Below are positions 14,946-53,329 of a stretch of DNA of 64,000 nt, in pieces. The notes beneath the pieces were generated by a model. The model was not told the origin of the DNA, searched no databases, and saw only the letters and a program-made list of their open reading frames with translations. The stretch is from an uncultured Fibrella sp. (GTDB lineage: Bacteria; Bacteroidota; Bacteroidia; Cytophagales; Spirosomataceae), in the NCBI RefSeq assembly GCF_964250085.1, contig NZ_CAXUEC010000013.1, positions 5,101 to 69,100 of the forward strand, in the 5' to 3' direction. Position numbers and translations under genes: made by a program. Numbering within the stretch: position 1 is the stretch's first letter; each line of letters starts with the position of its first letter.

Positions 14946-15044
14946 ATCAGTTATCAGTTATCAATTAGGCTTTCTAGTAGTAAACGTACCTGAGCAACGC
15001 TGATAATTGATAATTGATCATTGATAACTGTTAATTGTTCATTA
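14946..15044. repeat. heptad-periodic inverted-repeat element
   Basis: The left arm is ATCAGTT ATCAGTT ATCAATT (14946-14966). The right arm is TGATAAT TGATAAT TGATCAT TGATAAC TGTTAAT TGTTCAT (15001-15042). The arms are partly complementary, and the loop carries AACGTACCTG (14983-14992). The element abuts the stop codon of the 15045 gene. Confidence 0.7.
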
Positions 15045-15479
15045 TCAAAAGTTGCTGGCTCCGAGGTTGCGGAAGGCCCACGGAATACCCGCCAGAATCA
15101 GAATGAGACCGACACCGTAGAAGATACCGACCAGACGGTGCTTCTGCGTATCGCCGGTGGCGCGCTTCGAGCGTGAGTAGCCAACGGTAATGGCGATGAT
15201 TGCCAGCAACATAATGGTGATGTGCTCAACCGTATAGAACCGGATAACCCGATCGCCCATACCACTAAAATTAACCCTGGGGCTGATGACGTATAAAATC
15301 AAGCCCAGTACCAGTTGCGTGTGTACGGAAATCAGCGTAAACAGATACAATTTACGATTTCCGTCGGTGAATGATTTATTCCCCATCCAACGGCTAACCG
15401 ATACGAAAACAGCCGCCAAAAGCAGCACTAGAGCGACCCAGCGAAGGCCCGAGTGGGCATGAACTAATCCGGTATACAT
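15045..15479 (-). CDS. hypothetical integral membrane protein (4 TM)
   Basis: 144 aa, hydrophobic, with N-terminus MYTGLVHAHSGLRWVALVLLL. No family was assigned. Confidence 0.6.
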   Translation of the reverse strand: MYTGLVHAHSGLRWVALVLLLAAVFVSVSRWMGNKSFTDGNRKLYLFTLISVHTQLVLGLILYVISPRVNFSGMGDRVIRFYTVEHITIMLLAIIAITVGYSRSKRATGDTQKHRLVGIFYGVGLILILAGIPWAFRNLGASNF

Positions 15480-15557
15480 AGTGTAGGTTTATCAACTTAA
15501 TGTGGGTGCAAAGAAACGGACAAACGACCGATTAAGGCCCCAACTGCCCAAGATTCA

Positions 15558-15860
15558 ATGATTCTTTACAACATTACGTATAACATCGACCAGCAGATCG
15601 AGCGCGAGTGGCTGCGTTGGATGAAAGATGAACACGTACCTGCCGTGGTGGCTACCGGCCTTACCATGCAGAATAACGCGCTGAAACTACTGACCGAGAT
15701 CGAAAACGGCGGTGCTACCTACACCTTCCAGTACTGGTTTCAGACCATGGAAGATTTTGTTACCTACCAGAGTCTGCATCAACCCGCCCTGCAACAACAG
15801 GTGGCTGACCGGTATGCCAACCGGTATGTATCCTTCCGCACCCTGCTGGAGGAGATATGA
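15558..15860 (+). CDS. DUF4286-like protein
   Basis: 100 aa. MILYNITYNIDQQIEREWLRWMKDEHVP matches my recollection of the DUF4286 N-terminus. Confidence 0.55.
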   Translation: MILYNITYNIDQQIEREWLRWMKDEHVPAVVATGLTMQNNALKLLTEIENGGATYTFQYWFQTMEDFVTYQSLHQPALQQQVADRYANRYVSFRTLLEEI

Positions 15861-15867
15861 CGATGCT

Positions 15868-15974
15868 ACGCTGTCATTTGTAGTCATTAGCTGTGCGTCA
15901 TTAGGTGGTCATTTATAGTTTACTCGACGAATGACCACGAATGACGCGCAGCTAATGACTACAAATGACAGCGT
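15868..15974. repeat. long hairpin between convergent genes (about 45-bp stem)
   Basis: ACGCTGTCATTTGTAGTCATTAGCTGTGCGTCATTAGGTGGTCATT pairs with AATGACCACGAATGACGCGCAGCTAATGACTACAAATGACAGCGT, with one mismatch and one bulge. The word GTCATT is reiterated. Confidence 0.85.
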
Positions 15975-15979
15975 AAGCG

Positions 15980-16939: not shown

Positions 16940-16945
16940 GGCTGG

Positions 16946-18002: not shown

Positions 18003-18123
18003 TTGGTCAGTAGTCATTGGTTGCTTCGCTTGGGAATGGCCAATCTGGCAACGCGACCAATGACTATTCCAACTTTTCTGATTTCCTCCCCCTATCTTTG
18101 CGCTTTCTTTCTGGAAGTTCGCA

Positions 18124-18714: not shown

Positions 18715-18733
18715 AAAAAAGCATACGCGAACC

Positions 18734-18785
18734 GAACGGGCTTCGGCGTTACCTTCTATGGAACGTCGAAGCCCGTTCTTTTTTG
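18734..18785 (+). terminator. intrinsic terminator
   Basis: GAACGGGCTTCG pairs with CGAAGCCCGTTC (12-bp stem, 21-nt loop) and is followed by T7 (18779-18785). Confidence 0.7.
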
Positions 18786-18788
18786 CCC

Positions 18789-20867: not shown

Positions 20868-22562
20868 ATGGCAACCAATGGCGCTACGCCAACACCCGAA
20901 CGAATTGACAATAACCGGACCATCGTTCGGTTGCCTATGCTGCTGGGGCTAACCCTCGCCGGCGGCGTGCTGATTGGTGCTTCTTTTTTTGGCGGAACAA
21001 AAGGATTAAACTCAATTGGTCGGGGCTATACCAAGTACAAAGAAATTCTGCAACTGATTGAAAACAACTACGTTGACTCTGTTAATACAGATGATCTGGT
21101 TGATTATTCGATCACGAAGATGCTCGAAAAACTTGACCCGCACACGGCTTACCTGAACCCAACCGACGCCGTGGCGGCCCGGTCTCAACTGGAAGGTGGC
21201 TTTGATGGCATCGGTGTTGAGTTCAACATCTTTGCCGATACCGTTTACGTGGTTACGCCCCTGGCGGGTGGCCCGTCTGAAGCCGCCGGTATTCGCAGCG
21301 GCGACAAGATCCTGAAAGTCGATGATACCCCGCTGACCGCTAAGGGTGTCGACAACACGGCCGTGTACAAAGCCATGCGGGGTAAACGCGGCACTGAAGT
21401 TCGGCTGACGGTGCTGTCGAAAGGGCAACAGCCCCGCGTGGTCACCGTTACCCGCGACCGGATTCCGACCTACGCCGTTGATGCCGCCTACATGACCGAT
21501 GCGCAAACGGGTTATCTGAAAGTAAACCGCTTCTCCGACTCGGCTTATGAGGAGTTCAGAAATGCGCTGGCGGGGCTGAAGCAACAGGGCATGAAGCAAC
21601 TGGTGCTCGACCTGCGCGGCAACCCCGGTGGCTATCTGGACCGGGCTACCAACATGGCCGATGAGTTTATCGACGGTAACAAACTGCTGGTGTACACCGA
21701 TGGGAAAGAAGATCGCTACGACCGGAAATACTACGCCAAACTCAACGGACAGTTTGAAGACGGTGCCCTGATCGTGCTAATCGATGAAGGCAGCGCCTCT
21801 GCCTCCGAAATCCTGGCTGGTGCCTTGCAGGACCATGACCGGGGCTATATCGTGGGCCGCCGCTCGTTCGGAAAAGGCCTGGTGCAAATGCCGGTGCAAC
21901 TCACCGACGGATCGGAACTCCGCCTGACCATATCGCGCTATTACACGCCAACGGGGCGCAGCATTCAGAAGCCGTACATTCCCGGTCAGGAGGGTGATTA
22001 CGAGAAAGAGCTTGAGCTGCGCTCGAAACGGGGCGAATACTACATCGCCGACAGCATCAAGAACGATCCCAAGAATGTGTTCAAAACCGACAAGGGCCGC
22101 ACCGTCTACGGCGGCGGCGGCATCACGCCCGATTACTTCGTTCCCCGCGATTCGAGCTGGCAGACTGCTTACCTGGGCCAGTTATACGCTAAGAACATCA
22201 TTCGTGAATACGCATTGTCCTACGCCAATGACAACCGGGCCAGTCTGGAAAAACTGCCTTTCGCTGAGTTCGACAAAGCAGTGAACCTGACCGACGACCA
22301 GTTGGCCGTCATGAATAAAGCCGCGGCGGCAGAAGGGGTTAAACTCAACGCGGCTGAGTTTGCCCGCTCGAAGAATTATATACGTACCCAAACCAAAGCG
22401 CTCATTGCTAGGTACGTCTACCAGAAGGCCAGCAAAGGCGGCCAGAACAATGAGTTCTACCGCATCATGAATACCGCCGATAACACCTACGTAAAAGCCC
22501 TGTCGCTGTTCAACAAAGCTCAGGAACTGGAGTTTGGCCCGAAAGCGGTTGGGAAGAAGTAA
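20868..22562 (+). CDS. S41 carboxy-terminal processing peptidase (PDZ domain)
   Basis: 564 aa with motifs LDLRGNPGGYL and GSASASEILAG, plus a PDZ segment (GGPSEAAGIRSGDKILKVDD). Confidence 0.9.
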   Translation: MATNGATPTPERIDNNRTIVRLPMLLGLTLAGGVLIGASFFGGTKGLNSIGRGYTKYKEILQLIENNYVDSVNTDDLVDYSITKMLEKLDPHTAYLNPTDAVAARSQLEGGFDGIGVEFNIFADTVYVVTPLAGGPSEAAGIRSGDKILKVDDTPLTAKGVDNTAVYKAMRGKRGTEVRLTVLSKGQQPRVVTVTRDRIPTYAVDAAYMTDAQTGYLKVNRFSDSAYEEFRNALAGLKQQGMKQLVLDLRGNPGGYLDRATNMADEFIDGNKLLVYTDGKEDRYDRKYYAKLNGQFEDGALIVLIDEGSASASEILAGALQDHDRGYIVGRRSFGKGLVQMPVQLTDGSELRLTISRYYTPTGRSIQKPYIPGQEGDYEKELELRSKRGEYYIADSIKNDPKNVFKTDKGRTVYGGGGITPDYFVPRDSSWQTAYLGQLYAKNIIREYALSYANDNRASLEKLPFAEFDKAVNLTDDQLAVMNKAAAAEGVKLNAAEFARSKNYIRTQTKALIARYVYQKASKGGQNNEFYRIMNTADNTYVKALSLFNKAQELEFGPKAVGKK

Positions 22563-22660
22563 AAAGTAGTCAAACACAGAGACGCCGAGTACACAGAGTT
22601 TCATTTCCTTTAGCAGGAAAACTCTGTGTACTCGGCGTCTCTGTGTTTGACTACTTTTTA
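22560..22660. repeat. perfect 42-bp inverted repeat between convergent genes (candidate bidirectional terminator)
   Basis: 22560-22601 is the exact reverse complement of 22619-22660, with a 17-nt loop. The stem base includes both stop codons: TAA at 22560-22562 and TTA (reverse TAA) at 22658-22660. Confidence 0.9.
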
Positions 22661-24811
22661 CTTCTTCACCACTCCTGTCAACTCCTGCACCAGCCGGTCG
22701 GCTTTGTAGATGTAGCGCATAGCGGCGAGAATCCCCCCCGCGTGGACAGAAATGGCCCGGTTGGCGTCGGGCACGAAGATGAACGAGCCAGGCAGGCTTT
22801 CCATGTTGCCATCGAATACCAGCCCCACGGCCTCCCGGTTTTTATTGATCATTGGACTGCCTGAATTGCCCCCGATAATGTCATTGGTGGATATGAAGCA
22901 CATGGGTTGTTTTAGCAACTCCGCCGGTGGATTGGCCCAGCGGGCGGGAAGATTCCAGGGCGCTTTGTTGCCAAACGAATAGCTGCGGTCATACAGCCCG
23001 GCAAAGGTGGTGATGATTGGCGCCTGCGTGCCATTGTACGGATATCCTTTCACCACGCCGTCATTGATCCGTAACGAAAACGTAGCGTCGGGCGGAATGC
23101 TTGTGCCGTAGGTATCGTACAGCGCCCGACCCAACTGGCTGCGAAGCACCTGCTGGCGTGTTGTTAAATCGCGCACGGTGGCATTGACGGCCAGAAAACG
23201 CTTTCCACCAAGGCGGCCCAGGGCCAGCAGTGGGTCGTTGTTGGTGGCCAGGGCGTTGGCTCCACCATCCTGCAACATCGTGACAAAGCCCCGATTTATG
23301 AGCTTTGTAGCGGCCAGTAAGGCGGCGGCAGCTTCGCGAGGCGAACGTACCTGACCGTTGGGTCCGGTGAGGGCTGCTTTCACATACGGGTCATCGTTGC
23401 CCAATGCTGCCTGTGCTTCGCTGAAATGAGCCGCCAGAAAGGCTTCTTCCAGGGCCCGGCTCTTTGGCCTGGGCATCTCCTCGAATACGCCTTTTGCCTG
23501 TTGCCAGATAGCCGGGTTGTCGGTTACCGCCTGATTAATGAATCCCAGCGTCATGGCAAAGGTCATTGTTTCGCCAAGCGCCATTGGGTTGGGGGCCAGG
23601 TACGTATAATCGTTGAATGCTTTTCGTTGGGCGGCAACGTCGGCGGCAAGATCATCCCAAGTTTTTGTTGAGATTCCTTTCTTCTGCGCATCGGCTTTAA
23701 AAGTACGCTCAAAAGCGGCCTTCCGGGCAATCAGGTACGGATCGCGGAGGCCGTCGAGTTGGCCTTTCGAGGCTTTATAGCTGTTTTCCAGGTTGAAAAT
23801 CTCGTTCAGAACGCTGTCGCTCTTGGCCGTTGCATTGTAGGCCTGCAATGCATTCGAGCGGCTGCGGAGTAGAGAGAGAGTATACGGAAACTGCAAATCA
23901 CGGTCATATTCCAGTTCCGCCACCGTTTTCAGGCGCTCGGTACTGCCGGGATTTCCCGTTACAAACGTAGGCTCCCCTTCGCGGATGCCGTTCGGGTTGA
24001 ACTTGAAAAAGTGGGTCGTCTGAAGTGGTTTTCCCTTATCATATACCCGGAAAAACGAGCAGTCGAGCGCATAGCGTGGGTACGTAAAGTTGTCGGGGTC
24101 GCCACCGAAAAAGCCCAGGTTTAGCTCCGGCATGAACACCAGCCGAACGTCGGTGAAGCGTTTGAACCCGTAAAGCGCATACCGGCCACCGTCGTAAAAC
24201 GTGATCGTCTGTAGTTCCAGCCCTTTCCAGTCGGCCTTGGCGGCGTATTCGTCTTTAATACTGGCAAAGATCTGTTCACGCGCCTGCACCTGCGCTTTCT
24301 CATCGGCCCCCGACGCCGTAACGGCATCCTGTACCCGCTTCGAAATGTCTTCGATCTTCACCAGTTGATCCACAAACAGACCGTCTACTTTCCGTTCTTC
24401 GGCGGCTGTTTTGGCAAAGAACCCGGTGTTGTTCAAATCCTCGCCCCGACGCGCCACGCCCGTCCCCGATTCGCGGGCGCAGTGGTGATTGGTCATGACC
24501 AACCCATTGGCTGATACGAACGACGCTGAGCAATAGTCGGCAAAGCGCAACGACGCCAACTGAACTTCCCGGAACCAGTTGGCGTCGGGGGTGAAGTTGT
24601 AGGTCTTCTTGAAGTAATCAGTCGGGGGCGTATCGAAGGTCCACATCTTGCCCATGTCGAACGGGCCCGCCTGAACGGTATCGGGGTTAAGTGTTGCCGA
24701 CGGTGCCTGCGCCCAACTGAGCGATGTGGCCAGCAGGCCTGCGAGCAACCCAGCCAGCGCGGGGCGAGCTGTACCTGCGAAGGGTATTCCAGTATGCTTA
24801 AGGCGAATCAT
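22658..24811 (-). CDS. S46 family dipeptidyl-peptidase (DPP7/DPP11-like)
   Basis: 717 aa with a signal peptide. The catalytic His context is CSASFVSANGLVMTNHHC and the catalytic Ser context is GGNSGSPMIN. Confidence 0.9.
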   Translation of the reverse strand: MIRLKHTGIPFAGTARPALAGLLAGLLATSLSWAQAPSATLNPDTVQAGPFDMGKMWTFDTPPTDYFKKTYNFTPDANWFREVQLASLRFADYCSASFVSANGLVMTNHHCARESGTGVARRGEDLNNTGFFAKTAAEERKVDGLFVDQLVKIEDISKRVQDAVTASGADEKAQVQAREQIFASIKDEYAAKADWKGLELQTITFYDGGRYALYGFKRFTDVRLVFMPELNLGFFGGDPDNFTYPRYALDCSFFRVYDKGKPLQTTHFFKFNPNGIREGEPTFVTGNPGSTERLKTVAELEYDRDLQFPYTLSLLRSRSNALQAYNATAKSDSVLNEIFNLENSYKASKGQLDGLRDPYLIARKAAFERTFKADAQKKGISTKTWDDLAADVAAQRKAFNDYTYLAPNPMALGETMTFAMTLGFINQAVTDNPAIWQQAKGVFEEMPRPKSRALEEAFLAAHFSEAQAALGNDDPYVKAALTGPNGQVRSPREAAAALLAATKLINRGFVTMLQDGGANALATNNDPLLALGRLGGKRFLAVNATVRDLTTRQQVLRSQLGRALYDTYGTSIPPDATFSLRINDGVVKGYPYNGTQAPIITTFAGLYDRSYSFGNKAPWNLPARWANPPAELLKQPMCFISTNDIIGGNSGSPMINKNREAVGLVFDGNMESLPGSFIFVPDANRAISVHAGGILAAMRYIYKADRLVQELTGVVKK

Positions 24812-24823
24812 AGAGACAGAAAA

Positions 24824-26240: not shown

Positions 26241-26246
26241 GTTGAG

Positions 26247-26625
26247 TTATAGCGTTCGTGGATCCATAACAGTAAGACCCTGTATGTCAATGAAATCTTT
26301 TGTGTTACTAGTCAAACGTGTTAACTCGTTAACTAGCGCAGTGGCCGCAATGATTGCATCAGGAATTTTGGTACTTCTGGACTTCCGTAAAGCGATTGTT
26401 TGCAGAATAATTGGTTCAGCAAGTTCAATAACCTGGCTGTCGTTTACAAATTCACGGAACAGCGTCTTCTTTTGGCGCGTTAAACTCCAGTAGTTCTATA
26501 CGGGTTACTACCGATATAATCGCTCCGGAATCAACCAACTCATTTATAAAGTCCGTAGCTGATGCTGAGAATTTACCTGACAGATAATGCGATACAGCAT
26601 TGCTGTCTATCAGATACGACCCCAT
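26247..26625 (-). pseudogene. PIN-domain (VapC-like) toxin interrupted by a frameshift
   Basis: The N-terminal half MGSYLIDSNAV...VVTRIELLEFNAPKEDAV ends at a stop at 26452. The C-terminal half FREFVNDSQVIELAEPIILQTIALRKSRSTKIPDAIIAATALVNELTRLTSNTKDFIDIQGLTVMDP continues in another frame down to a stop at 26247-26249. The PIN acidic residues (D, E, D) are all present. Confidence 0.8.
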
Positions 26626-26819
26626 TCGTCGCGACTTTGCTGAATATGTTTGTCGAGTAGGCCGACTGTCCTGGCTGAGAGTTTTCCCGCGAAGCAATCT
26701 GCTGCTTTTGGCTTCTCTGTCTGTTTCTGATCAACGAACCGAGTAATCTGCCAGGCCTTCAGGTCGCGCAAAAGGGTCATCGCTTTTTGATCGCGGACTT
26801 CGATAAGTAGTGTTTCCAT
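26610..26819 (-). CDS. putative antitoxin partner of the PIN toxin
   Basis: 69 aa, immediately upstream of the PIN ORF and overlapping its start by 16 nt, which is a typical type II TA arrangement. Confidence 0.55.
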   Translation of the reverse strand: METLLIEVRDQKAMTLLRDLKAWQITRFVDQKQTEKPKAADCFAGKLSARTVGLLDKHIQQSRDEWGRI

Positions 26820-26834
26820 AGAACTCGATTTGGC

Positions 26835-27770: not shown

Positions 27771-27846
27771 CCCCAACCCCCTGAAGGGGATAAAGCGTTG
27801 CAAAGGTAATAAAGCAGCGCATTAGCCCCCTTCAGAGGGTTGGGGG
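27771..27846. repeat. C-rich/G-rich hairpin in a divergent intergenic region
   Basis: CCCCAACCCCCTGAAGGGG (27771-27789) pairs with CCCCCTTCAGAGGGTTGGGGG (27826-27846), giving a 19-bp stem with one mismatch. Confidence 0.8.
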
Positions 27847-27894: not shown

Positions 27895-30003
27895 ATGACC
27901 GAACGTACCACCTTCTTCGACACCCGCCTGGAATACCTGAAAGGGCTTGGCCCACAGCGGGCTGAGTTGCTGAATAAAGAACTGCACCTGTTTACGGCTG
28001 CCGATCTGATTCAGTACTACCCCTTCCGGTACGAAGACCGTACGCGCTTTTACACCGTCAGCGAATTGCTGGAATCAATGCCCTCGGCGCAGGTACGTGG
28101 TCGCCTCCGCGACTGGCATACGGAAGGCGAAGGACCGAAAAAACGGCTTGTTGGTCATTTTACAGATGGTACCGGCACCATGGATCTGGTCTGGTTTCAG
28201 GGTATTTCCTGGCTCGAAAAATCGCTTCGGCGCGACGGGGAATACATTGCGTTCGGGAAGCCGCAGGAGTTTCAGGGCAAGTTTAGTATCGTGCACCCCG
28301 AACTCGATGCGGTGCGGCCTGATGTGGAGCCCGAAGCCACGCTGTCGCCCGTATACAACCTGACGGATAAGCTCCGCAAGCGGTTTGTCGATAACAAAGT
28401 GATGGCCAAAGCCATGCGGTCGCTGCTTGAACTGGCCTGGCCGCATATCCACGAAACCCTACCGGCCAGCCTGATCGAGAAGTTTCGACTGGTGGGTAAA
28501 CGGGAAGCTGTCTGGAACATTCACCTGCCCCAAAGCCCCGCCTGGCTGCGGCAGGCCGAACGGAGGCTGAAATTCGAGGAACTATTCTACAATCAGCTTC
28601 GGCTGATTTCCAACAAGCTGATTCAGAAGGAAGAACACCCCGGTCAGATTTTTCAGAAAACCAGCCTTCTCTCGCATTTCTACAAAACCCTGCTGCCTTT
28701 CCCGCTTACGGGGGCGCAGCAGCGTGTATTGCGCGAAATTCATAAAGATTGCCTGACGGGGCGGCAAATGAACCGGCTGTTGCAGGGCGATGTAGGCAGC
28801 GGTAAGACTATCGTGGCGTTCATCACGATGCTCCTGGCGATCGACAACGGCGCGCAGGCCTGCCTGATGGCGCCTACCGAAATCCTGGCCGACCAGCACT
28901 ACAACGGCCTCAAACCCTTTGCCGATGCAATGGGCCTGAACCTCGGCATCTTGACCGGGAGCACGCGCACCAAACGCCGCCGGGTGCTACACGACGAACT
29001 GCTAACTGGCAGGATGCACATTCTGGTAGGCACCCACGCCCTGCTCGAAGATGTGGTGCAGTTCCGCAATCTGGGCCTGTGCATCATTGACGAGCAACAC
29101 CGTTTCGGCGTGGCACAACGGGCCAAAATGTGGGCGAAAAACCCGGTCGTACCACCGCATATCCTCGTCATGACGGCCACGCCCATTCCGCGCACATTGG
29201 CGATGACCCTCTACGGTAACCTCGACATTTCGATCATCGACGAAATGCCCGCCGGGCGGAAACCCATCAAAACGGTACACAAGACCGATAAGCACCGGGC
29301 CGAGGTGTTTGGCTTCATGCGCCAGCAGATTGAACTCGGTCGGCAGGTATATGTGGTGTATCCGCTGATCGAAGAGTCGGAAACGCTGGATTATAAGGAT
29401 TTGACAGACGGGCACGAGAGTATTGAGCGGGCGTTTCCACAGCCCAAATACCAGGTCGGTATTCTGCACGGTAAAATGGATTCATACAGTAAAGACTACG
29501 AGATGACGCGCTTCGCCAACGGAGAAACGCAGATTCTGGTGGCGACAACCGTGATCGAAGTAGGGGTGAACGTACCTAACGCGAGCGTAATGGTTATTGA
29601 AAGCGCCGAACGATTTGGCCTGTCGCAGTTGCATCAGTTGCGGGGACGCGTTGGCCGGGGAAGCGACCAATCGTACTGCGTACTGATGACGGGTTACAAA
29701 CTTAGCGCCGATACCAAAACGCGCCTCGAAACGATGGTACGGACCAACAATGGCTTCGAGATTGCCGACGTCGACCTGCAACTACGCGGCCCCGGCGACC
29801 TGGCCGGCACGCAACAAAGTGGCCTGTTGGACCTGCGCCTCGCCGACCTGGCCAAAGACGGTGCCGTCCTGACCGCCGCCCGTGAATCGGCGCAGATCAT
29901 CCTGGAAACCGATCCCAACCTGATTCTGCCTGAACACGCCACCATTCGCAACCACATCGACGCCATCGGCCGTACCCAATCCGACTGGAGCCGGATCTCT
30001 TGA
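27895..30003 (+). CDS. recG: ATP-dependent DNA helicase RecG
   Basis: 702 aa with an N-terminal wedge/OB region, Walker A (GDVGSGKT), a DEQH box (IIDEQHRFG) and QLHQLRGRVGRG. Confidence 0.95.
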   Translation: MTERTTFFDTRLEYLKGLGPQRAELLNKELHLFTAADLIQYYPFRYEDRTRFYTVSELLESMPSAQVRGRLRDWHTEGEGPKKRLVGHFTDGTGTMDLVWFQGISWLEKSLRRDGEYIAFGKPQEFQGKFSIVHPELDAVRPDVEPEATLSPVYNLTDKLRKRFVDNKVMAKAMRSLLELAWPHIHETLPASLIEKFRLVGKREAVWNIHLPQSPAWLRQAERRLKFEELFYNQLRLISNKLIQKEEHPGQIFQKTSLLSHFYKTLLPFPLTGAQQRVLREIHKDCLTGRQMNRLLQGDVGSGKTIVAFITMLLAIDNGAQACLMAPTEILADQHYNGLKPFADAMGLNLGILTGSTRTKRRRVLHDELLTGRMHILVGTHALLEDVVQFRNLGLCIIDEQHRFGVAQRAKMWAKNPVVPPHILVMTATPIPRTLAMTLYGNLDISIIDEMPAGRKPIKTVHKTDKHRAEVFGFMRQQIELGRQVYVVYPLIEESETLDYKDLTDGHESIERAFPQPKYQVGILHGKMDSYSKDYEMTRFANGETQILVATTVIEVGVNVPNASVMVIESAERFGLSQLHQLRGRVGRGSDQSYCVLMTGYKLSADTKTRLETMVRTNNGFEIADVDLQLRGPGDLAGTQQSGLLDLRLADLAKDGAVLTAARESAQIILETDPNLILPEHATIRNHIDAIGRTQSDWSRIS

Positions 30004-32173: not shown

Positions 32174-32260
32174 CAGTTATTGGTTACTGGTTATTGGCTA
32201 TCAGTTCTGGAACGTACCTGAACGAGGCCAGTAACCAATAACCAGCAACTAATAACCATT
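32174..32260. repeat. heptad-periodic inverted-repeat element between eno and the ftsB-like gene
   Basis: The left arm is TTATTGG TTACTGG TTATTGG CTATCAG (32177-32204). The right arm is CCAGTAA CCAATAA CCAGCAA CTAATAA (32228-32255). The arms are complementary in several registers, and the loop carries AACGTACCTG (32211-32220). Confidence 0.75.
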
Positions 32261-32261: not shown

Positions 32262-32570
32262 ATGAACCGTCTCCTCAACAATCGCTATCGATTCTACATC
32301 CTGACGGGCGTAGGGTTTTTGCTGTGGATGCTGTTTTTCGACGCTAATGACCTGCGCTCGCAGTTTCGTAACTGGCGAAAAGCGCAGGAACTGGAGGAAG
32401 AGAAAGCGTATTTTCAGACCCAGATCGAGGCCGTCCGGGCCGAGCGTAAAGAAGTACTGGGTAGCCAGCAACTTCGGATCAAGTACGCCCGCGAGAAGTA
32501 CCTGATGAAAAAGCGCCACGAAGACGTATATGTGCTCGTTGATGAGAACGGTGAACCGATTGAAAAGTAG
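32262..32570 (+). CDS. ftsB: septum formation initiator family protein (FtsB/DivIC-like)
   Basis: 102 aa with one TM helix followed by a coiled coil (AQELEEEKAYFQTQIEAVRAERKE). It has the conserved position downstream of eno. Confidence 0.7.
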   Translation: MNRLLNNRYRFYILTGVGFLLWMLFFDANDLRSQFRNWRKAQELEEEKAYFQTQIEAVRAERKEVLGSQQLRIKYAREKYLMKKRHEDVYVLVDENGEPIEK

Positions 32571-32669
32571 TTTACAGTTTACCGTTTATAGTTTGCCGTT
32601 GCTCCGCCGATGAGCGAATCGATTTGCTGGCAGCGCAACAGTAAACGGTAAACAGAAAACTGTAAACTG
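32571..32669. repeat. heptad-periodic long hairpin
   Basis: The left arm is GTTTACA GTTTACC GTTTATA GTTTGCC GTTGCTC. The right arm is CAGCGCA ACAGTAA ACGGTAA ACAGAAA ACTGTAA. The arms are partly complementary with register slippage. Confidence 0.75.
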
Positions 32670-32674
32670 ATTTT

Positions 32675-33168: not shown

Positions 33169-33293
33169 GAGTGAAAGAGTGAGTGGCGAAAGAGTGAAAG
33201 TAGCTTCGCTGTATAGCGACTGGCTACTTAGTAGATTTATACCATATGCTCATCGTTCCGCTCTTCGCCTTTCGCTCTTTCATTCTTTCACTC
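33169..33293. repeat. periodic-arm inverted repeat upstream of gpmI
   Basis: GAGTGAAAGAGTGAGTGGCGAAAGAGTGAAAG (33169-33200) faces CGCTCTTCGCCTTTCGCTCTTTCATTCTTTCACTC (33259-33293). Complementarity is imperfect. An apical sub-hairpin contains GCTTCGCT. Confidence 0.65.
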
Positions 33294-37052: not shown

Positions 37053-37158
37053 AAAATGTTTTCCGTTTACTGTTTGCTGTTTTCTGTTGCTTCGCATTCT
37101 GGCTTGACTATCAATGCGAAGCAACAAAAAACAGCAAACGGTAAACGGAAAACATTTT
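37053..37158. repeat. 46-bp-stem heptad-periodic hairpin (candidate terminator of the 37159 gene)
   Basis: 37053-37098 (AAAATGTTTTCCGTTTACTGTTTGCTGTTTTCTGTTGCTTCGCATT) pairs with 37113-37158. There are 2 transition mismatches and a 14-nt loop. Confidence 0.9.
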
Positions 37159-39202: not shown

Positions 39203-39317
39203 GGTTTTGTTGGATTATTTCACAAAATACGAATAAAATAAGTTTCAGGCTTCAAGTGCACTGCCAATCACCGGGACAGTTCATTGGGAACGCACTTGAA
39301 ACCCTCAAACTTAAAAC

Positions 39318-40409: not shown

Positions 40410-40526
40410 TGTACAATGTATAATTGACGTTAGCTGCTGAACACTGGCTGGTTGGATGACATGCTCTGTAAAAGCTATTGGCCAATATCCAGCATTCGGT
40501 AGCTAACGTCAATTATACATTGTACA
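40410..40526. repeat. perfect 26-bp inverted repeat with a 65-nt spacer
   Basis: 40410-40435 (TGTACAATGTATAATTGACGTTAGCT) is the exact reverse complement of 40501-40526. Confidence 0.85.
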
Positions 40527-43855: not shown

Positions 43856-44254
43856 ATGCAACGCGAAACTAAAGGATATGCCCTCATTGTAGGTCTATTT
43901 TGCATCCTCGGTTTATTAATCTACGGAGCGTATTCACCCGCCCGTAAAGCCCAGAAACAGCAGATATTCTGTTTTTCTTTCACAAATGAGGCAAATCCGC
44001 AAGCTATAGATAAGCATATGCGCGATTTTGCAGCTCTTCGGCACGAAATTCCACAGGTCGTTGGTTACACCGCCGGCAAGACATTTTTGGTCGGTGCTGC
44101 CAATTCCGAGTATGATGTTATGCATTATCTGACTTTTCAGAATGAAGCAGACATGAAAGCGTTCGAGCAAAATCCTGCCTACAAAACGTTCGTCAACGAA
44201 AATAAAGCAAGCTGGGATAAGACGTTAGTAGTGAACGCAGAGATACAGCCTTAG
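43856..44254 (+). CDS. Dabb (stress-responsive alpha/beta barrel) domain protein
   Basis: 132 aa with an N-terminal TM/signal segment followed by the Dabb pattern FCFSF....I......F..L...IP.V.....G...........YD..H...F. Confidence 0.6.
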   Translation: MQRETKGYALIVGLFCILGLLIYGAYSPARKAQKQQIFCFSFTNEANPQAIDKHMRDFAALRHEIPQVVGYTAGKTFLVGAANSEYDVMHYLTFQNEADMKAFEQNPAYKTFVNENKASWDKTLVVNAEIQP

Positions 44255-44328
44255 TCTGGATTTAGCCAAAATAAAAGGGCAGCCGATTGATCGGCTGCCC
44301 TTTTATTTTGGCTAAATCCAGACTAAGG
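44249..44328. repeat. 80-bp near-perfect palindrome (39-bp arms, 2-nt centre)
   Basis: 44249-44287 is the exact reverse complement of 44290-44328, with centre TG. The TAG stop of the Dabb gene (44252-44254) lies inside the left arm. Confidence 0.9.
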
Positions 44329-44332
44329 GTTT

Positions 44333-44393
44333 AAAGTCCAGCGTTGCTCTGCTGGTGTTAAGTCGGTTAACTAGCAAAGCAACGTTGGACTTT
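44333..44393. repeat. second hairpin between convergent genes
   Basis: AAAGTCCAGCGTTGCTCTGCT (44333-44353) pairs with AGCAAAGCAACGTTGGACTTT (44373-44393), giving a 21-bp stem with 2 transition mismatches. Confidence 0.8.
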
Positions 44394-44420
44394 AGACCTT
44401 GACCTTTAAACTTTGAACCC

Positions 44421-47412: not shown

Positions 47413-47496
47413 GTTTACTGTTTAGTGTCTTCAGTTGCTTCGCTACTTGTCGGTGCGTGTCAACAGCGAAGCAACTGAAGACACTAAACAGTAAAC
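47413..47496. repeat. perfect 32-bp-stem hairpin in a divergent promoter region
   Basis: 47413-47444 (GTTTACTGTTTAGTGTCTTCAGTTGCTTCGCT) is the exact reverse complement of 47465-47496, with a 20-nt loop. The arm is 27/31 identical to the arm of the 37053 element. Confidence 0.9.
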
Positions 47497-49135: not shown

Positions 49136-49248
49136 TGCCCTAACAACGAGTCATATTGGGCAGGTCGTATATAAAGCAGTACGAAAAGTAGCTGGCTGTA
49201 TAGGAGTAGTGCGTACCGGTTGGCTACTTTTACCGCAAAGCTTTTTGC

Positions 49249-50103
49249 ATGAAACTATTCCGCTTCGGCCCCGATGGCCACGAGCACCCCGGCGTATTGA
49301 TGCCGGACGGTAGCCACCTTGATGTCAGCCATTTCGGCGGCGATTACGATGAATTATTCTTCGCCACCAACGGCCCCGACCGACTGGCCCACTGGCTCAC
49401 GGCCCACGCCGCCACCTGCCCGCACGTACCGGCCGATGCTCGGTTTGGCCCCTGCATTAAACGCCCCTCGAAGATCGTTTGCGTGGGCCTGAATTACGCC
49501 AAACATGCCGCTGAAACGGGGGCTACACCGCCAGCAGAGCCCATTCTGTTCTTCAAATCAACAACCTCGCTTTGCGGGCCAAACGACAATGTCGTGCTTC
49601 CGAAGCGATCAGAAAAAACCGATTGGGAGGTAGAACTGGCCGTGGTCATTGGCAAACGCGCCAGCTACGTTGAACTCGATGCCGCGATGGAGTATGTAGC
49701 GGGTTATGCCGTGGTGAATGATTACAGCGAACGGGCGTTTCAGTTGGAACGGGGCGGACAATGGGCCAAGGGCAAAGGCTGCGACACGTTTGCGCCAATG
49801 GGACCTTATCTGGTCACTCGTGAGGAGGTTCCTAACCCAAACGCGCTGGGCCTGTGGCTGTCGGTGAACGGCGAGAAACTACAGGATTCCAACACCGACG
49901 ACATGATTTTCGACGTACCTACGCTGGTCAGCTACATTAGTCAGTTTATGACGCTGCTACCCGGCGACGTGATCTCGACGGGCACGCCATCGGGTGTTGG
50001 CCTCGGCCTGAAACCACCCCGCTACCTCAAGCCCGGCGATGTTGTCGAACTCGGCATCGAAGGCCTGGGCGAACAACGCCAACTGGCCGTCTCTTATCAA
50101 TGA
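49249..50103 (+). CDS. fumarylacetoacetate hydrolase (FAH) family protein
   Basis: 284 aa: KIVCVGLNYAKHA, DWEVELAVVIG, GDVISTGTP. Confidence 0.85.
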   Translation: MKLFRFGPDGHEHPGVLMPDGSHLDVSHFGGDYDELFFATNGPDRLAHWLTAHAATCPHVPADARFGPCIKRPSKIVCVGLNYAKHAAETGATPPAEPILFFKSTTSLCGPNDNVVLPKRSEKTDWEVELAVVIGKRASYVELDAAMEYVAGYAVVNDYSERAFQLERGGQWAKGKGCDTFAPMGPYLVTREEVPNPNALGLWLSVNGEKLQDSNTDDMIFDVPTLVSYISQFMTLLPGDVISTGTPSGVGLGLKPPRYLKPGDVVELGIEGLGEQRQLAVSYQ

Positions 50104-50111
50104 ACAAGTAT

Positions 50112-50175
50112 CAATGACCAATTATCGGCTTCGTGGCATTGCCGTTGCACCAGCAAAGCTGATAATTGGTCATTG
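50112..50175. repeat. 20-bp-stem hairpin between co-directional genes
   Basis: CAATGACCAATTATCGGCTT pairs with AAGCTGATAATTGGTCATTG, with one transition mismatch. Confidence 0.8.
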
Positions 50176-50196
50176 ACACTTGATAATTGTAACACC

Positions 50197-51021
<825 letters not shown>

Positions 51022-51071
51022 GATTTTAGACTTTGTGATTTCAGCATCCAGTATCTGACATCCTATACATC

Positions 51072-51854
51072 ATGAATCTACACTTTACAGATAAAGTAAT
51101 CATCGTTACGGGCGGTGCCCGGGGTATTGGCGAAGGTATCAGCCGGGTGCTGGCGGCCGAAGGTGCCATCGTAGCCATTGTAGGGCGCAGTGCTGACCAT
51201 AACACCGCGACCGTTACCAGCATCGAAGAAGCAGGCGGGCGGGCCTTTGGCGTCGTTGCCGAATTGACCCAGCCGGAAGCTTGTAAACTGGCGGTGGAAC
51301 AGGTGATGAACCAGTTTGGCCGCATCGATGGGCTCGTCAACAACGCGGGTGAAAATGATGGTGTTGGCCTGGAAAGTGGTAGTTACGAAGGTTTTATGTC
51401 TTCCTTGCACAAAAACCTGGTGCATTACTACCTCATGGCGCACCACGCGTTGCCAGCGCTGAAAGCATCGAAAGGCAGCATCGTGAATATTGGCTCCAAG
51501 GTGGCTACGACGGGCCAGGGAAACACATCGGCCTACGCAGCGTCGAACGGTGGCCGCAATGCCCTCACCCGCGAATGGGCGGTGGAACTGCTGCCCTACG
51601 GTATCCGGGTAAACGCGGTGATCGTGGCCGAATCTTGGACGCCGCTTTACGAAAAATGGATCAAAACACTGCCTGACCCGGACGAGACGCTGAAAAAAAT
51701 TACCAGCAAAATTCCGCTCGAACAGCGTATGACGACTACCACCGAACTGGCCAACACCGTCGCGTTTCTACTGTCATCGCAGTCGAGCCATACCACCGGG
51801 CAACTGGTCTATGTCGACGGAGGCTATACCCACCTCGATCGGTCTATTTCATAA
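51072..51854 (+). CDS. SDR family oxidoreductase
   Basis: 260 aa: TGGARGIGEG, NNAG, and a catalytic Y in the context SAYAASNGG. Confidence 0.85.
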   Translation: MNLHFTDKVIIVTGGARGIGEGISRVLAAEGAIVAIVGRSADHNTATVTSIEEAGGRAFGVVAELTQPEACKLAVEQVMNQFGRIDGLVNNAGENDGVGLESGSYEGFMSSLHKNLVHYYLMAHHALPALKASKGSIVNIGSKVATTGQGNTSAYAASNGGRNALTREWAVELLPYGIRVNAVIVAESWTPLYEKWIKTLPDPDETLKKITSKIPLEQRMTTTTELANTVAFLLSSQSSHTTGQLVYVDGGYTHLDRSIS

Positions 51855-51858
51855 AAAT

Positions 51859-51956
51859 GTCCTCCATCTTCTGTTCTCGGTCTTCTGTTGCGCTGCTAAA
51901 ACACCTATTTCTGAATCAGCAGCGCAACAGAAGACCGAGAACAGAAGATGGAGGAC
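51859..51956. repeat. perfect 39-bp-stem hairpin between the SDR gene and fucP
   Basis: 51859-51897 (GTCCTCCATCTTCTGTTCTCGGTCTTCTGTTGCGCTGCT) is the exact reverse complement of 51918-51956, with a 20-nt loop. Confidence 0.92.
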
Positions 51957-51980
51957 TTAATCTCCTAAACTCCCTTTTAA

Positions 51981-53267
51981 ATGGCTGCCATTCCTGTACC
52001 CCCTACCTCTAAACCACCAGGCACCCCGACGGGAACGCCGGTCGAATCGTATACACTGGCATTTGCGCTGGTAACGAGCCTGTTTTTCCTGTGGGCCTTC
52101 GTCCACAACCTGGAACCCATCCTGATTCCGCACTTAAAGAAAGCGTGTCAACTCTCTGATCTACAGTCGGCCCTGATCGATTCGGCGGTGTATCTGGGCT
52201 ACTTCCTGATGGCCATTCCGGCTGGTCTGGTTATGAAAAAGTACGGCTACAAGCGGGGAATCCTGATGGGGCTGGCCTTGTACGCGCTGGGGGCGTTGCT
52301 GTTTGTGCCGGCGGCCAATACCCGAATTTATGTGCTGTTTCTGGGCGCACTGTTCATCATTGCGTCGGGCTGTGCGTTTCTGGAAACAGCGGCCAATCCA
52401 TACGTAACGCTGCTTGGCCCGCCTGAATCGGCTACGACGCGACTCAACCTGAGCCAGTCGTTCAACGGGCTGGGTTCGTTTCTGGCTCCGCTAATAGGAG
52501 GGAAGCTAATCTTGAGCGGTATCGAACACACGCAGGGCGAACTGGCGGCGATGACGCCAACCCAGCTAGACACGTACCTACAGTTTGAAGCCAATTCGGT
52601 GAAGATGCCGTACCTGATCATTGCCGGTTTGGTGCTGGTTGTCTTGCTGCTGTTTGTCTTTATAAAGCTGCCCACTGTGCATACCCACGTGAGTGAGCGC
52701 GTGTCGACTTTGCGTACAGCCTTGAAACACCGGCAGTTGGTGGGTGGTATCGGGGCCGAATTTTTCTACGTGGGTACGCAGGTTTGCGTCACGAGTTTCT
52801 TCATCCGGTTTGCCAGGTTCACCAGCAACATTCCCGAGAAGCAGGCGGCTGAACTACTCGGTTTCGCCATGCTGGGTTTCCTGATCGGCCGCTTCACAGG
52901 TACGTTCCTCATGCGCTACATTGCGCCTAATCGCCTCCTGACGATCTACGCCGTAATCTGTATGGTGCTGCTGGCAGTGGCTTTGTCGTCGCACTCAGAA
53001 GTAGCCGTATGGGCTTTGTTTGGGGTGCCTTTCTTCCTGTCGATCATGTTCCCGACCATCTTCGCCCTGGCAATCAACCGGTTGAACGAAGACCGGGAAC
53101 TTGGTTCGTCGCTGTTGGTGATGGCCATTGCCGGTGGTGCTTTCTGCCCACTGCTGATGGGCTGGATTTCCGACAAAACGAACATCCAGACGGCCTACGT
53201 GGTGCCTATGCTTTGCCTGACCGTGATTGCCTGGTATGGCTGGAAAGGACACGTGGTTGAAGAGTAA
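51981..53267 (+). CDS. fucP: L-fucose:H+ symporter permease (MFS)
   Basis: 428 aa with 12 TM helices. The N-terminal region FFLWAFVHNLEPILIPHLKKACQLSDLQSALIDSAVYLGYF is typical of FucP. Confidence 0.85.
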   Translation: MAAIPVPPTSKPPGTPTGTPVESYTLAFALVTSLFFLWAFVHNLEPILIPHLKKACQLSDLQSALIDSAVYLGYFLMAIPAGLVMKKYGYKRGILMGLALYALGALLFVPAANTRIYVLFLGALFIIASGCAFLETAANPYVTLLGPPESATTRLNLSQSFNGLGSFLAPLIGGKLILSGIEHTQGELAAMTPTQLDTYLQFEANSVKMPYLIIAGLVLVVLLLFVFIKLPTVHTHVSERVSTLRTALKHRQLVGGIGAEFFYVGTQVCVTSFFIRFARFTSNIPEKQAAELLGFAMLGFLIGRFTGTFLMRYIAPNRLLTIYAVICMVLLAVALSSHSEVAVWALFGVPFFLSIMFPTIFALAINRLNEDRELGSSLLVMAIAGGAFCPLLMGWISDKTNIQTAYVVPMLCLTVIAWYGWKGHVVEE

Positions 53268-53329
53268 TGTAACGCGGACTTCAGTCCGCATTTTTTGTAC
53301 TTAAATGCGGACTGAAGTCCGCGTTACAT
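53267..53329. repeat. perfect 26-bp-stem hairpin with nested palindromic arms
   Basis: ATGTAACGCGGACTTCAGTCCGCATT (53267-53292) is the reverse complement of 53304-53329. Each arm contains the self-complementary GCGGACTTCAGTCCGC (or its mirror). Confidence 0.9.

Follow-up and report, generated by a model that had tools for sequence, protein, structure and literature searches.

Long intergenic palindromes built from inverted heptamer arrays in a Fibrella genome and their possible relation to PF05635 gene cassettes

The window studied here is a stretch of 64,000 nucleotides from an uncultured Fibrella sp., a soil bacterium (contig NZ_CAXUEC010000013.1, positions 5,101 to 69,100 of the forward strand), and our analysis concerns the very long hairpins that occupy many of its gene boundaries. 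The window begins with a CRISPR-Cas island (1-12843), within which no long hairpins were found, and the hairpins are confined to the ordinary chromosomal sequence from 14.9 to 53.7 kb. This part contains, among others, genes for peptidases of families S41 and S46, recG, the genes for enolase and gpmI, and a fucose-type operon with the gene order FAA_hydrolase-Amidohydro_2-adh-MFS-rhaM. The phosphoglycerate mutase is 94% identical to those of F. arboris and F. aquatica and 89% identical to that of Fibrella sp. USSR17, and the enolase is 87% identical to the enolase of Spirosoma oryzae. The results for this genome cover this one 64-kb window.

An earlier note on the sequence had listed 13 of these hairpins as a family of elements far longer than ordinary terminators, with arms made of degenerate 7-nt units. 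All 13 fold in RNAfold, with energies from -25 to -106 kcal/mol, and they were recovered by an inverted-repeat finder with arms of 23 to 61 nt that are 78% to 100% complementary, so that both the hairpins and their exceptional length are confirmed. With a single fixed criterion, the window contained 15 hairpins with arms of at least 16 nt, compared with a mean of 0.57 in 30 first-order Markov simulations of the window, and 11 hairpins with arms of at least 20 nt (simulated mean 0.13). The hairpins included members beyond the earlier list, at 18011-18066, 27771-27845, 39248-39303, and 53666-53716. All hairpins were intergenic and their loops measured 2 to 43 nt. Most of them started 0 to 8 nt past a stop codon, and 6 hairpins between co-directional genes ended 0 to 7 nt ahead of the next start codon, such that the hairpin made up the entire gap. 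No match was obtained in a search of the whole window against Rfam at the gathering threshold.

The periodicity of 7 nt was found in most but not all of the elements. Tandem Repeats Finder identified period-7 arrays in 7 arms, at 14945, 15001, 32176, 32228, 32569, 32637, and 37057. For the pooled 5' arms, the identity at lag 7 was 0.437, as compared with 0.281 in shuffled arms (z = 7.8) and 0.241 in coding segments, and none of 2000 matched sets reached the value of the arms; the identity at lag 14 was raised as well (z = 6.4). The excess that the earlier note had proposed to look for is thus present within the window, and its view that the arms are not decayed coding sequence is supported. 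The signal was carried by about 9 of the 13 elements, namely 14945, 32176, 32563, 37053, 40410, 47413, 50098, 51859, and, weakly, 53267. No period of 7 was detected in the arms of 22541, 44244, and 44328, the element at 33169 has a period of 8 nt instead, and the periodicity at 15868 is weak.

A phase logo of 72 units from core-bearing elements in 5 genomes had G at position 1 in 55 units, T at position 2 in 64 units, T or C at position 3 in 51 and 18 units, T or A at position 4 in 45 and 17 units, A or T at position 5 in 38 and 26 units, C or G at position 6 in 42 and 20 units, and any base at position 7. The in-phase consensus of the unit is hence G-T-T-T-A-C-N, and it leads into an apical core, GTTGC(G/T)YYGC, which in the form of GTTGCGC or GTTGCTT is in frame with the heptamers. 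Owing to the palindromic symmetry, either strand reads 5'-(GTTNNNN)n-core-loop-core'-(NNNNAAC)n-3', and where the numbers of units in the two arms are unequal, as at 14945 with 3 and 6 units, several pairing registers are possible, as had been suggested. The motif TTGCKYYSC was observed 20 times in the window, whereas 12.8 matches were expected, and 11 of the matches were located in hairpin apices, in agreement with the earlier notion of a core shared by a subset of the elements.

A few unit types recurred within the window (GTTTACN at 32563, 37053, and 47413; GTCTTCN at 51859 and 47413), and most units were specific to one element. In an all-against-all BLAST comparison of 63 elements, the matches corresponded to orthologous pairs and otherwise to segments of 17 to 31 nt made up of units plus core. 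Different loci thus have only the unit type and the core in common, never the loop, which indicates that the elements are not transposed copies of a master sequence. The mutual relationship that had been claimed therefore holds for the unit type and the core, but not for the elements as copies of one another. Likewise, the notion of a single family holds for the architecture, the units and the core, but the set is heterogeneous: the listed element at 44249 is a bidirectional terminator, and those at 22560 and 53267 count as non-periodic palindromes. The data support a family defined by its architecture, which is found again and again in Fibrella, Spirosoma, Rudanella, Larkinella, and Tellurirhabdus.

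The leftmost element, at 14945..15044, is situated between minus-strand genes for a 144-aa membrane protein and, next to it, a TIG-domain protein. Its 5' arm contains 3 ATCAGTT units and its 3' arm 6 units of the TGATAAT type, and its loop includes the word AACGTACCTG. On the sense (minus) strand, the start-side arm reads TAATTGA TAACTGA TAACTGA and ends 12 nt before the ATG at 14932. The palindrome at 15867..15975, between convergent genes for a DUF4286 protein and a phytase-like protein, has 36-nt arms that are 97% complementary, with irregularly spaced units of the GTCATT type, and is 6 and 4 nt away from the 2 stop codons. A short hairpin with the apical core GGTTGCTTCGC (18011..18066) follows 8 nt past the stop codon of the DUF4783 gene, and the hairpin at 18734..18778 on the plus strand, with 17-nt arms followed by TTTTTT, is the sole co-directional element that resembles a canonical intrinsic terminator. 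The palindrome at 22541..22679 is non-heptameric and has 61-nt arms, of which the inner 49 nt are perfect; it lies between the convergent S41 and S46 peptidase genes, and its arms take in the last codons of both genes together with their stop codons. A C-rich hairpin with 19-nt arms (27771..27845), situated in the divergent HGLS|recG gap, has a loop containing GCGTTGC...GCAGCGC, and a related element was found at the same site in Fibrella sp. USSR17.

Three consecutive gaps downstream of the enolase gene are taken up by hairpins. The first, at 32176..32256, consists of GTTATTG and GTTACTG units with AACGTACCTG in the loop and fills the gap between the enolase gene and an ftsB-like gene, at distances of 4 nt from the stop codon and 5 nt from the start codon. 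The second, at 32563..32674, covers the whole gap between the ftsB-like gene and the gene for a low-molecular-weight phosphatase (ftsB|PTP), with the units GTTTACA GTTTACC GTTTATA GTTTGCC followed by the core GTTGCTCCGC. It is decayed, with a complementarity of 78%, and is the ortholog of an element in F. arboris to which it is 91% identical over 78 nt. The third, at 33169..33293, is a purine-rich hairpin of period 8 with GAGTGAAA units that fills the phosphatase|gpmI gap, and its unit type is retained at the site in 4 Fibrella genomes and in Spirosoma oryzae.

Further downstream, a hairpin with 46-nt arms of 96% complementarity (37053..37158) starts 0 nt past the stop codon of a GFO_IDH gene on the minus strand, with the units GTTTTCC GTTTACT GTTTGCT GTTTTCT followed by the core GTTGCTTCGC. 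An imperfect hairpin with 21-nt arms (39248..39303) is located in the gap between minus-strand genes for an AI-2E family protein and a fatty-acid hydroxylase, and the methyltransferase|AI-2E gap is filled by a hairpin with 38-nt arms that are 89% complementary (40410..40526; lag-7 identity 0.48), 11 nt past the stop codon and 3 nt ahead of the start codon. Between the convergent genes for a Dabb protein and ferrochelatase (hemH), a canonical bidirectional terminator, recognized by eye from an A-tract, a GC stem, and a T-tract at the apex, has its stem extended to 39 to 44 bp (44244..44333). A long perfect palindrome of differing sequence was present at this site in every Fibrella genome examined. 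The same gap contains a second hairpin with the apical core GTTGCTCTGC (44328..44398).

The remaining elements flank or lie within the catabolic operon region. A perfect hairpin with 32-nt arms (47413..47496) lies 16 nt upstream of a LysR start codon, in a gap between divergent genes, and has the units GTTTACT GTTTAGT GTCTTCA followed by GTTGCTTCGCT. The hairpin at the FAA_hydrolase|Amidohydro_2 junction (50098..50189; lag-7 identity 0.56) overlaps the stop codon. In the same operon, the gap that separates adh_short from MFS holds a perfect hairpin with 39-nt arms (51859..51956), with the units GTCCTCC ATCTTCT GTTCTCG GTCTTCT followed by GTTGCGCTGCT. The MFS|rhaM gap is filled by a perfect palindrome with 27-nt arms (53267..53329), and a hairpin with 18-nt arms (53666..53716) is located 4 nt past the rhaM stop codon. 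The divergent gap upstream of the FAA_hydrolase operon (49136-49248), which includes a stem, GAAAAGTAGC...GCTACTTTT, is strongly conserved in a metagenomic relative of USSR17; it probably serves as the regulatory region of the operon and falls outside the hairpin class.

It was also noted that AACGTACCTG, which occurs in 2 of the hairpin loops, is the most over-represented 10-mer of the window, with 19 exact copies outside the CRISPR array. These are located at 14983, 19257, 23344, 25396, 32211, 33133, 35618, 38798, 44969, 46107, and 55740 on the plus strand and at 2771, 7347, 11148, 30196, 36304, 41585, 52897, and 55699 on the minus strand. Including variants with one mismatch, there are about 58 copies outside the CRISPR array, compared with 7.5 expected for the whole window. 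The word is found on both strands, in all frames and inside genes, and its flanks are not conserved. Other Fibrella loci contain 3 to 10 copies per 21 kb, whereas Rudanella, Spirosoma, and other Bacteroidota have 0 or 1. It resembles a genomic word of the DNA-uptake-sequence or Chi type.

To follow the elements between genomes, syntenic loci were compared from F. arboris (L081), F. aquatica (L082), USSR17 (L083), its metagenomic relative (L085), and F. aestuarina (L086), and, in other genera, from Rudanella (L087), Spirosoma oryzae (L001), Nibrella (L208), and Larkinella soli (L209). The orthologous Fibrella loci were collected per protein; in an enolase-based scan of genome contigs, Spirosoma oryzae was the one close relative among the matches listed. 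Nearly all orthologous gaps in 4 to 5 Fibrella and Spirosoma genomes contained a long hairpin, with units specific to the species. At enolase|ftsB, for example, the units were GTTATTG in the window, GTCTTCN in F. arboris, GTTAAGA in F. aquatica, GTTTGNN in USSR17, and GGTTTAC in Spirosoma. When the window was compared with the other Fibrella genomes, the identity at 4-fold degenerate sites was only 0.43 to 0.65, which is near saturation, and neutral sequence should therefore be unalignable. The turnover of the arms is thus no sign of unusual speed, and the idea that the arms evolve exceptionally fast was rejected. Three features are nevertheless not neutral: near-perfect pairing persists at the same sites across species despite the saturation of synonymous sites, part of an element (core and flanks, or outer arms) is retained where the rest has been replaced, and a few elements are conserved far more strongly than synonymous sites.

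The comparison of gaps in sister genomes, which the earlier note had called for, revealed both gain or loss of hairpins and replacement of arms between species. The hairpin at 47413, between divergent genes, was missing from the orthologous gap in L085, and no target duplication was found at the insertion. At adh|MFS, the L085 ortholog had kept the core and the flanks and had different arms, whereas at FAA_hydrolase|Amidohydro_2 the outer arms were retained and the apex was replaced. The ftsB|PTP element, on the other hand, was 91% identical over 78 nt, far above the level at synonymous sites, the flanking genes being 47% identical at 4-fold sites.

The 2 arms of an element were found to change together. 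L083 and L085 are 92.5% identical at 4-fold sites, and in their Dabb|hemH palindromes a base was deleted in both arms, a T/A change was mirrored, and the loop was inverted, with zero unmirrored changes. Compensatory double changes were also observed at 53267, where C:G in one element corresponds to T:A in the L085 ortholog, at 50098, and between F. arboris and F. aquatica in the GFO gap. The S46 peptidase ends in ..ELTGVVKK* in the window and in ..ELLQK* in USSR17, and the tail ..TGVVKK* is encoded by the mirror image of the end of the S41 gene (..AVGKK*). The S41 tail ..AVGKK* is the ancestral state, and the palindrome at 22541-22679 has overwritten the C-terminal codons of the S46 gene. For 33 elements of known orientation, the summed folding energies were practically equal, at -1547 kcal/mol for the sense strand and -1519 kcal/mol for the antisense strand, and G·U pairs, which were counted as a sign of selection at the RNA level, showed no strand bias in these elements (83 sense vs. 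75 antisense). Mirrored changes, the flip of the loop, and the lack of a G·U bias are signatures of template switching across a hairpin, not of selection on the RNA of one strand.

The fucose-type operon shows that the elements are insertions into junctions that are 3 to 14 nt long in related genera. In the window, the successive gaps of the operon measure 93, 50, 126, and 64 nt, and 3 of them are filled by hairpins. The first 3 junctions in Larkinella soli are 10, 14, and 44 nt long, and the fourth, of 88 nt, contains a hairpin with TTGAATN arms and the core cap TTGCTCCGC...GCAGCGC. In Nibrella, the Amidohydro_2|adh junction is 13 nt and the MFS|rhaM junction 3 nt. The 0 to 7 nt that separate a hairpin from the following start codon cannot accommodate a promoter, and the operon-internal elements must therefore be transcribed through, which argues against a role at transcript ends for at least 5 elements.

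Long hairpins were frequent in the window and in Spirosoma and nearly absent from 78 other Bacteroidota enolase loci among the matches listed. Using a criterion of 15 matches in 21 positions, after a criterion of 13 in 14 had proved too stringent for the degenerate units, the density of period-7 arrays per 100 kb was 12.5 in the window, 21.4 in other Fibrella, 28.3 in Rudanella, 32.9 in Spirosoma, and 6.2 elsewhere. Heptamer arrays were patchy elsewhere, with inverted arrays in a Chitinophagaceae (L037) and a Sphingobacteriales (L062) locus and direct arrays in a Lentimicrobiaceae locus (L030). The core also caps an element in Tellurirhabdus, in the form GCTTCGCT, and as it caps hairpins in both Larkinella soli and Tellurirhabdus it is common to several genera. 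A metagenome scan with the core palindrome GTTGCKYYGCT-N(8-30)-AGCRRMGCAAC gave at least 83 matches, compared with about 80 by chance according to a rough estimate, and among the matches listed a single locus, L161, resembled the hairpin family.

A possible partner of the arrays emerged from one of these junctions. The family PF05635, which is annotated as "four helix bundle protein" or "23S rRNA IVS (intervening sequence) protein" and is also the family of the Avd protein of diversity-generating retroelements, is to our knowledge a very large, structurally solved family without a known stand-alone function. At the FAA_hydrolase|Amidohydro_2 junction of Nibrella, a 135-aa PF05635 gene is flanked by GTTAAGA/ATTAAGA units at one end and by TCTTAAC units at the other, and this cassette has its unit in common with two hairpins of F. 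aquatica, those at eno|ftsB and ftsB|PTP. Larkinella bovis and Tellurirhabdus have the same PF05635 cassette at this junction too, the junction is 10 nt long in Larkinella soli, and it holds gene-less hairpins in Fibrella and Rudanella.

Heptamer arrays abutted the PF05635 gene on both sides at all 19 loci examined, with units that differ from locus to locus. The chromosomal loci are L208 7771-8235 (Nibrella), L210 1953-2423 (Larkinella bovis), L211 1959-2402 (Tellurirhabdus), L003 4170-4740 and L009 9420-9995 (Cyclobacteriaceae), and L212 1919-2384 (Lentimicrobium, L212-221), and the plasmid loci are L222-L235. The 2 Cyclobacteriaceae genes were identified by a profile search of 2.2 Mb of comparison DNA, and both are flanked by TTTAAGA/TCTTAAA arrays. 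Most loci had inverted arrays; the arrays were direct at the locus of Lentimicrobium, where the gene is located between hsdS and hsdM with about 12 TTCGTAA units upstream and 2 to 3 downstream. In a tblastn search of 72,556 plasmids, the homologs were almost exclusively from cyanobacteria (Nostoc 16, Planktothrix 3, and others) and Bacteroidota. All 14 plasmid loci contained heptamer arrays on both sides, which were clearly inverted complements in 12 of them and less clearly so in Chondrinema and Pseudanabaena. The hosts were Nostoc, Anabaena, Planktothrix, Euhalothece, Gloeocapsa, Pseudanabaena, Bernardetia, Chondrinema, Treponema, Monoglobus, and Chlorohelix, with loci from Treponema, from a Firmicute, and from a member of the Chloroflexota among them. 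The association spans at least 5 phyla. Units of the plasmid cassettes included AGTAAAA, ATTCAAA, GTCGGAG, AGTGATT, TGGTCAC, AATCCCC, AATTCGC, TTTTAGA, and others.

The cassettes occupied the junctions FAA_hydrolase|Amidohydro_2, hsdS|hsdM, hsdS|hsdR, cas2|cas1, RND adaptor|permease, and drmD|pglX, and PF05635 genes were often found in defense operons (cas2|cas1, type I restriction-modification, DISARM/BREX). Against a background of about 6 arrays per 100 kb, the presence of flanking arrays at every PF05635 locus cannot be due to chance. The association appears to be undescribed: a literature search found no paper that joins PF05635 or IVS-protein terms with heptamer terms. Two further observations were made at the plasmid loci. 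In the Nostoc flagelliforme plasmid pNFSY05 (L223), GGAGTTGGGT is found just outside both cassette arrays in direct orientation, and this pair could be a target-site duplication. In the N. punctiforme plasmid pNPUN01, the PF05635 cassette is located directly upstream of a XisH gene.

The elements of the window resemble the cassettes in that the arrays are mostly inverted around an insert and in that they are placed at gene junctions, abutting stop and start codons. We consider it somewhat favored, with a probability of roughly 0.55, that the elements are lineage-enriched intergenic palindromes of inverted degenerate heptamer arrays, which represent the gene-less form of a cassette composed of a heptamer array, a PF05635 gene, and an inverted heptamer array. 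According to this proposal, they would consist of simple-sequence arrays similar to the short tandemly repeated repetitive (STRR) elements or the TAACTGA repeats, arranged head to head. The arrays may expand and contract through replication slippage in steps of 7 nt, and intrastrand or interstrand template switching across the hairpin would mirror one arm onto the other and keep the arms perfect, making the palindrome self-renewing. The gene-less hairpins could be either non-autonomous derivatives of PF05635 cassettes or their landing sites. The elements would be transcribed within operons and 3' untranslated regions, where a stem that reaches from stop to start codon would loop out the inserted approximately 100 nt. 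The stop and start codons would in this way stay juxtaposed, so that an insertion could be tolerated inside operons. The function of the hairpins can be inferred by analogy: the long duplex is probably a target of RNase III, a barrier to 3'-exonucleases, or a partial terminator, as in the 23S rRNA IVS and in repetitive extragenic palindromic (REP) sequences.

Going further, the PF05635 protein could be a trans-acting partner that would bind, propagate, or remodel the arrays. We regard it as a tentative possibility that heptamer arrays in general (STRR, TAACTGA, and the hairpins of Spirosomataceae) are the cis-elements of a widespread PF05635 cassette, with the protein acting in trans on the arrays and the hundreds of gene-less hairpins being its non-autonomous progeny, as REPs are to the REP-associated tyrosine transposases (RAYTs).

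Several observations weigh against the main proposal. The evidence from this genome comes from 64 kb, and a profile search of all open reading frames (ORFs) detected no PF05635 gene in the window and none in about 107 kb from other Fibrella (171 kb in all). The link to the cassettes would be based on the architecture, the niche, one shared junction, and one shared unit type. Some elements of relatives have A6/T6 tracts at the base of 35- to 52-bp stems (L082 14724, L083 14768, and L082 19800), which fits termination. The ftsB|PTP element is conserved although its pairing has decayed, which points to a sequence-level constraint on one arm and not to maintenance of the hairpin. Finally, hairpins could persist at orthologous sites because they are selected for a function and not because they renew themselves.

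These points bear on other explanations. The position of most elements 0 to 19 nt past a stop codon is what would be expected if they were the intrinsic (Rho-independent) terminators typical of this lineage, with long stems, weak or absent U-tracts, free sequence drift, and heptamers built by slippage, an explanation that we find unlikely. It would account for the hairpins that convergent gene pairs carry in every species, with A/T tracts at Dabb|hemH, for the T6 tract that follows the 35- to 52-bp stem in some of the relatives' elements, and for the presence of a hairpin in about 17 of 25 gaps with a gene 3' end, compared with about 2 of 7 divergent gaps, by our own tally. However, sites with a hairpin plus a T-tract were not in excess over shuffled sequences in the window scan (26 vs. 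22.6 and 25 vs. 23.9), consistent with the earlier statement that most of the elements lack a T-tract. Among the hairpins, a scan for terminator-like sites flagged 18760 and a 6-bp sub-hairpin within the 5' arm of 53267 and nothing else, and the short GC-rich stem, small loop, and directly following U-tract of an intrinsic terminator were found at 18734 and at the apex of 44244 and in no other element, the arms measuring 23 to 61 nt and the loops 9 to 43 nt. Moreover, elements fill gaps inside the catabolic operon, 0 to 7 nt from the next start codon and with no room for a promoter, at junctions of 3 to 14 nt in Larkinella and Nibrella, 47413 is located in a divergent 5' region, and the G·U pairs have no strand bias. 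The phased GTTTACN units, the conserved core, and the association with PF05635 are also left unexplained by termination. A scan for sigma-70 promoters gave no excess over shuffled sequences, a result that says little as the model is not that of Bacteroidota.

The fit between stem and gap could instead reflect RNA structures selected for translational control, in which a stem from stop to start codon masks an A-rich initiation region until the upstream ribosome opens its base. Such a structure would enforce coupling or set an expression ratio in the Shine-Dalgarno-poor Bacteroidota, and the A-rich 3' arm could serve as a ribosome landing pad, as has been proposed for TAACTGA repeats. At 32176, 32563, 33169, 40410, 50098, and 53267, only 0 to 8 nt on the stop side and 0 to 7 nt on the start side are left unpaired, the start-side arm of 14945 has 2 forward TAACTGA units 12 nt upstream of the gene, as in the published cases (PMC4679880), and at ftsB|PTP the 3' arm is conserved whereas the 5' arm is not. 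We nevertheless consider this explanation distinctly unlikely, given that there is no G·U bias toward the sense strand, that elements are also found between convergent and between divergent genes, that related genomes run the same operon without hairpins, and that arms are rewritten wholesale between species. Movement of the elements by a transposase, in the manner of REPs, REP doublets forming hairpins (REPINs), or MITEs (miniature inverted-repeat transposable elements), appears highly improbable. A candidate enzyme is available in the Y1 (IS200/RAYT-like) ORF at 30000-30782, which is conserved next to recG in 2 relatives, the element at 47413 is polymorphic for presence and absence, and neighboring gaps in F. 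aquatica have one unit type in common. Yet the elements lack a conserved terminal sequence, a GTAG/CGTC head, and a target duplication, their loops are unrelated, the BLAST similarity across loci is limited to 17 to 31 nt of unit plus core, and the GTAG-tagged REP doublet inside the Y1 ORF (30284-30457) differs in sequence.

A number of other features were noted in the window. The Y1 ORF is located directly after recG, a position kept in F. arboris and F. aquatica, and contains, in frame, the GC-rich REP doublet, with 50-nt arms that are 86% complementary, followed at 30459-30543 by 2.6 copies of a 33-nt tandem repeat. A XisH gene (34872-35216) overlaps the gpmI stop codon and is followed by a XisI-like ORF (35278-35613) that is apparently interrupted; both are missing at this site in 3 other Fibrella genomes. 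A 594-nt "gap" (26241-26834) contains minus-strand ORFs of 69 aa (26610-26819) and 81 aa (26452-26697), which may be an antitoxin gene and a PIN-like fragment, a candidate degraded toxin-antitoxin pair, and a HEPN/nucleotidyltransferase pair is found at the corresponding place in F. arboris. The CRISPR array (37-1735) has 26 copies of a 30-nt repeat, ATTTCAATTCCACTCAGGTACGATTAGAAG, and one spacer that is present twice (1-36 = 465-500). Next comes a minus-strand operon of lower GC content (2214-12843) with genes for Cas1, Cas4, Cas3, an unassigned 280-aa protein, Cas7, and an unassigned 626-aa protein, beyond which are Cas6 and a WYL-domain regulator. The island is type I and probably I-B-like.

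If the tie between arrays and protein is causal, heptamer arrays and PF05635, 2 orphans, would explain each other and would constitute a new cis/trans mobile-repeat system. For annotation, the implication is that such elements should not be taken as terminators by default and that they can rewrite the ends of genes. They are also of relevance to operon expression in Bacteroidota and provide a natural system for the maintenance of palindromes by template switching.

The statement in the earlier note that no such class of elements had been described was too strong, as tandem heptanucleotide repeats are already known in the form of STRR, TAACTGA, and GGGAATC sequences. The multi-unit, core-capped, and gap-filling hairpin form and its link to PF05635 were not found described. 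Heptamer repeats are the commonest class of long simple-sequence repeats in bacteria, and we know of neither an established origin nor an established role for them. The STRR heptanucleotide repeats of heterocystous cyanobacteria were reportedly described by Mazel and coworkers in 1990 and are said to have been found within helix P12 of RNase P RNA by Vioque in 1997, and they have been in use for cyanobacterial fingerprinting since 1990. Like the arms of the hairpins, they are tandem heptanucleotides located outside coding DNA, they fall into several unit families within a genome, and they can lengthen a helix when paired with complementary units. The STRR units GTCAACA, GTCATTG, and GTCCCCA fit, when rotated, the G-T-...-C-A frame of the hairpin units, although this is our own, non-statistical reading. 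The STRR sequences are described as direct arrays of a few fixed units with about 100 copies each, whereas the hairpins have degenerate, element-specific units that are inverted around a short loop, a conserved core as a cap, and a host among the Bacteroidota.

Heptamer motifs have also been listed for intergenic regions of Nostoc (PMC2408588). In Xanthomonas, GGGAATC arrays form inverted pairs close to stop codons (Rehm et al. 2015, PMC4692102). These are similar to the present elements in consisting of 2 convergent heptamer arrays that can form a stem-loop, in their strong bias to positions at or over the stop codon, and in that their length differs from species to species but their type, single or inverted, does not. 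They are distinct in having one G-rich unit capable of forming G-quadruplexes and in lacking an apical core, and a link to a gene cassette has not been reported for them. The TAACTGA direct repeats occur in Beggiatoaceae, cyanobacteria, and 5 Bacteroidetes, the gaps of which also contain other heptamer repeats, and their distribution parallels that of XisH/XisI (MacGregor 2015, PMC4679880). They share with the hairpins the arrangement of intergenic heptamer arrays a few nucleotides from the start codon, and the TAACTGA x2 of the element at 14945 is in that orientation. Element 14945 itself belongs to these repeats; it is alone in having the unit, and the other elements use other units. The TAACTGA arrays differ as direct repeats of a single unit that have been proposed to be a protein-binding translational signal, with a hairpin architecture occurring once in that genome.

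Among palindromic elements, the REP sequences and the bacterial interspersed mosaic elements and REPINs that contain them are likewise intergenic, often within operons, and have been proposed to act in mRNA stability, termination, and translation. REPs are, however, 20 to 40 nt long, conserved in sequence, tagged by GTAG/CGTC, and spread as copies, none of which holds for the hairpins. A MITE reading was rejected in view of the unrelated loops in the BLAST comparison and the lack of a target-site duplication at 47413. Integron attC sites (RYYYAAC/GTTRRRY cores) were rejected as well, since the genes on either side are housekeeping genes in conserved synteny and the units are incompatible with the attC cores, and a reading of the units as GTNNAC restriction sites was dropped as many of them (GTCTTCN, GTTAAGA) do not fit.

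A gene-bearing and a gene-less form are also known for the IVS of 23S rRNA in Leptospira, Coxiella, and Salmonella, some of which encode the PF05635 "S23p" protein and which are removed by RNase III. They are insertions of about 100 to 700 nt with long complementary arms, with or without a PF05635 ORF in the loop, and they are tolerated because the stem brings the flanks together. The IVS are located in rRNA helices 25 and 45, and heptamer arms are not part of their description, whereas the window contains no rRNA and its hairpins sit between protein genes. The window represents an extreme form, in which heptamer arrays are present as near-perfect palindromes at a large share of the gene boundaries.

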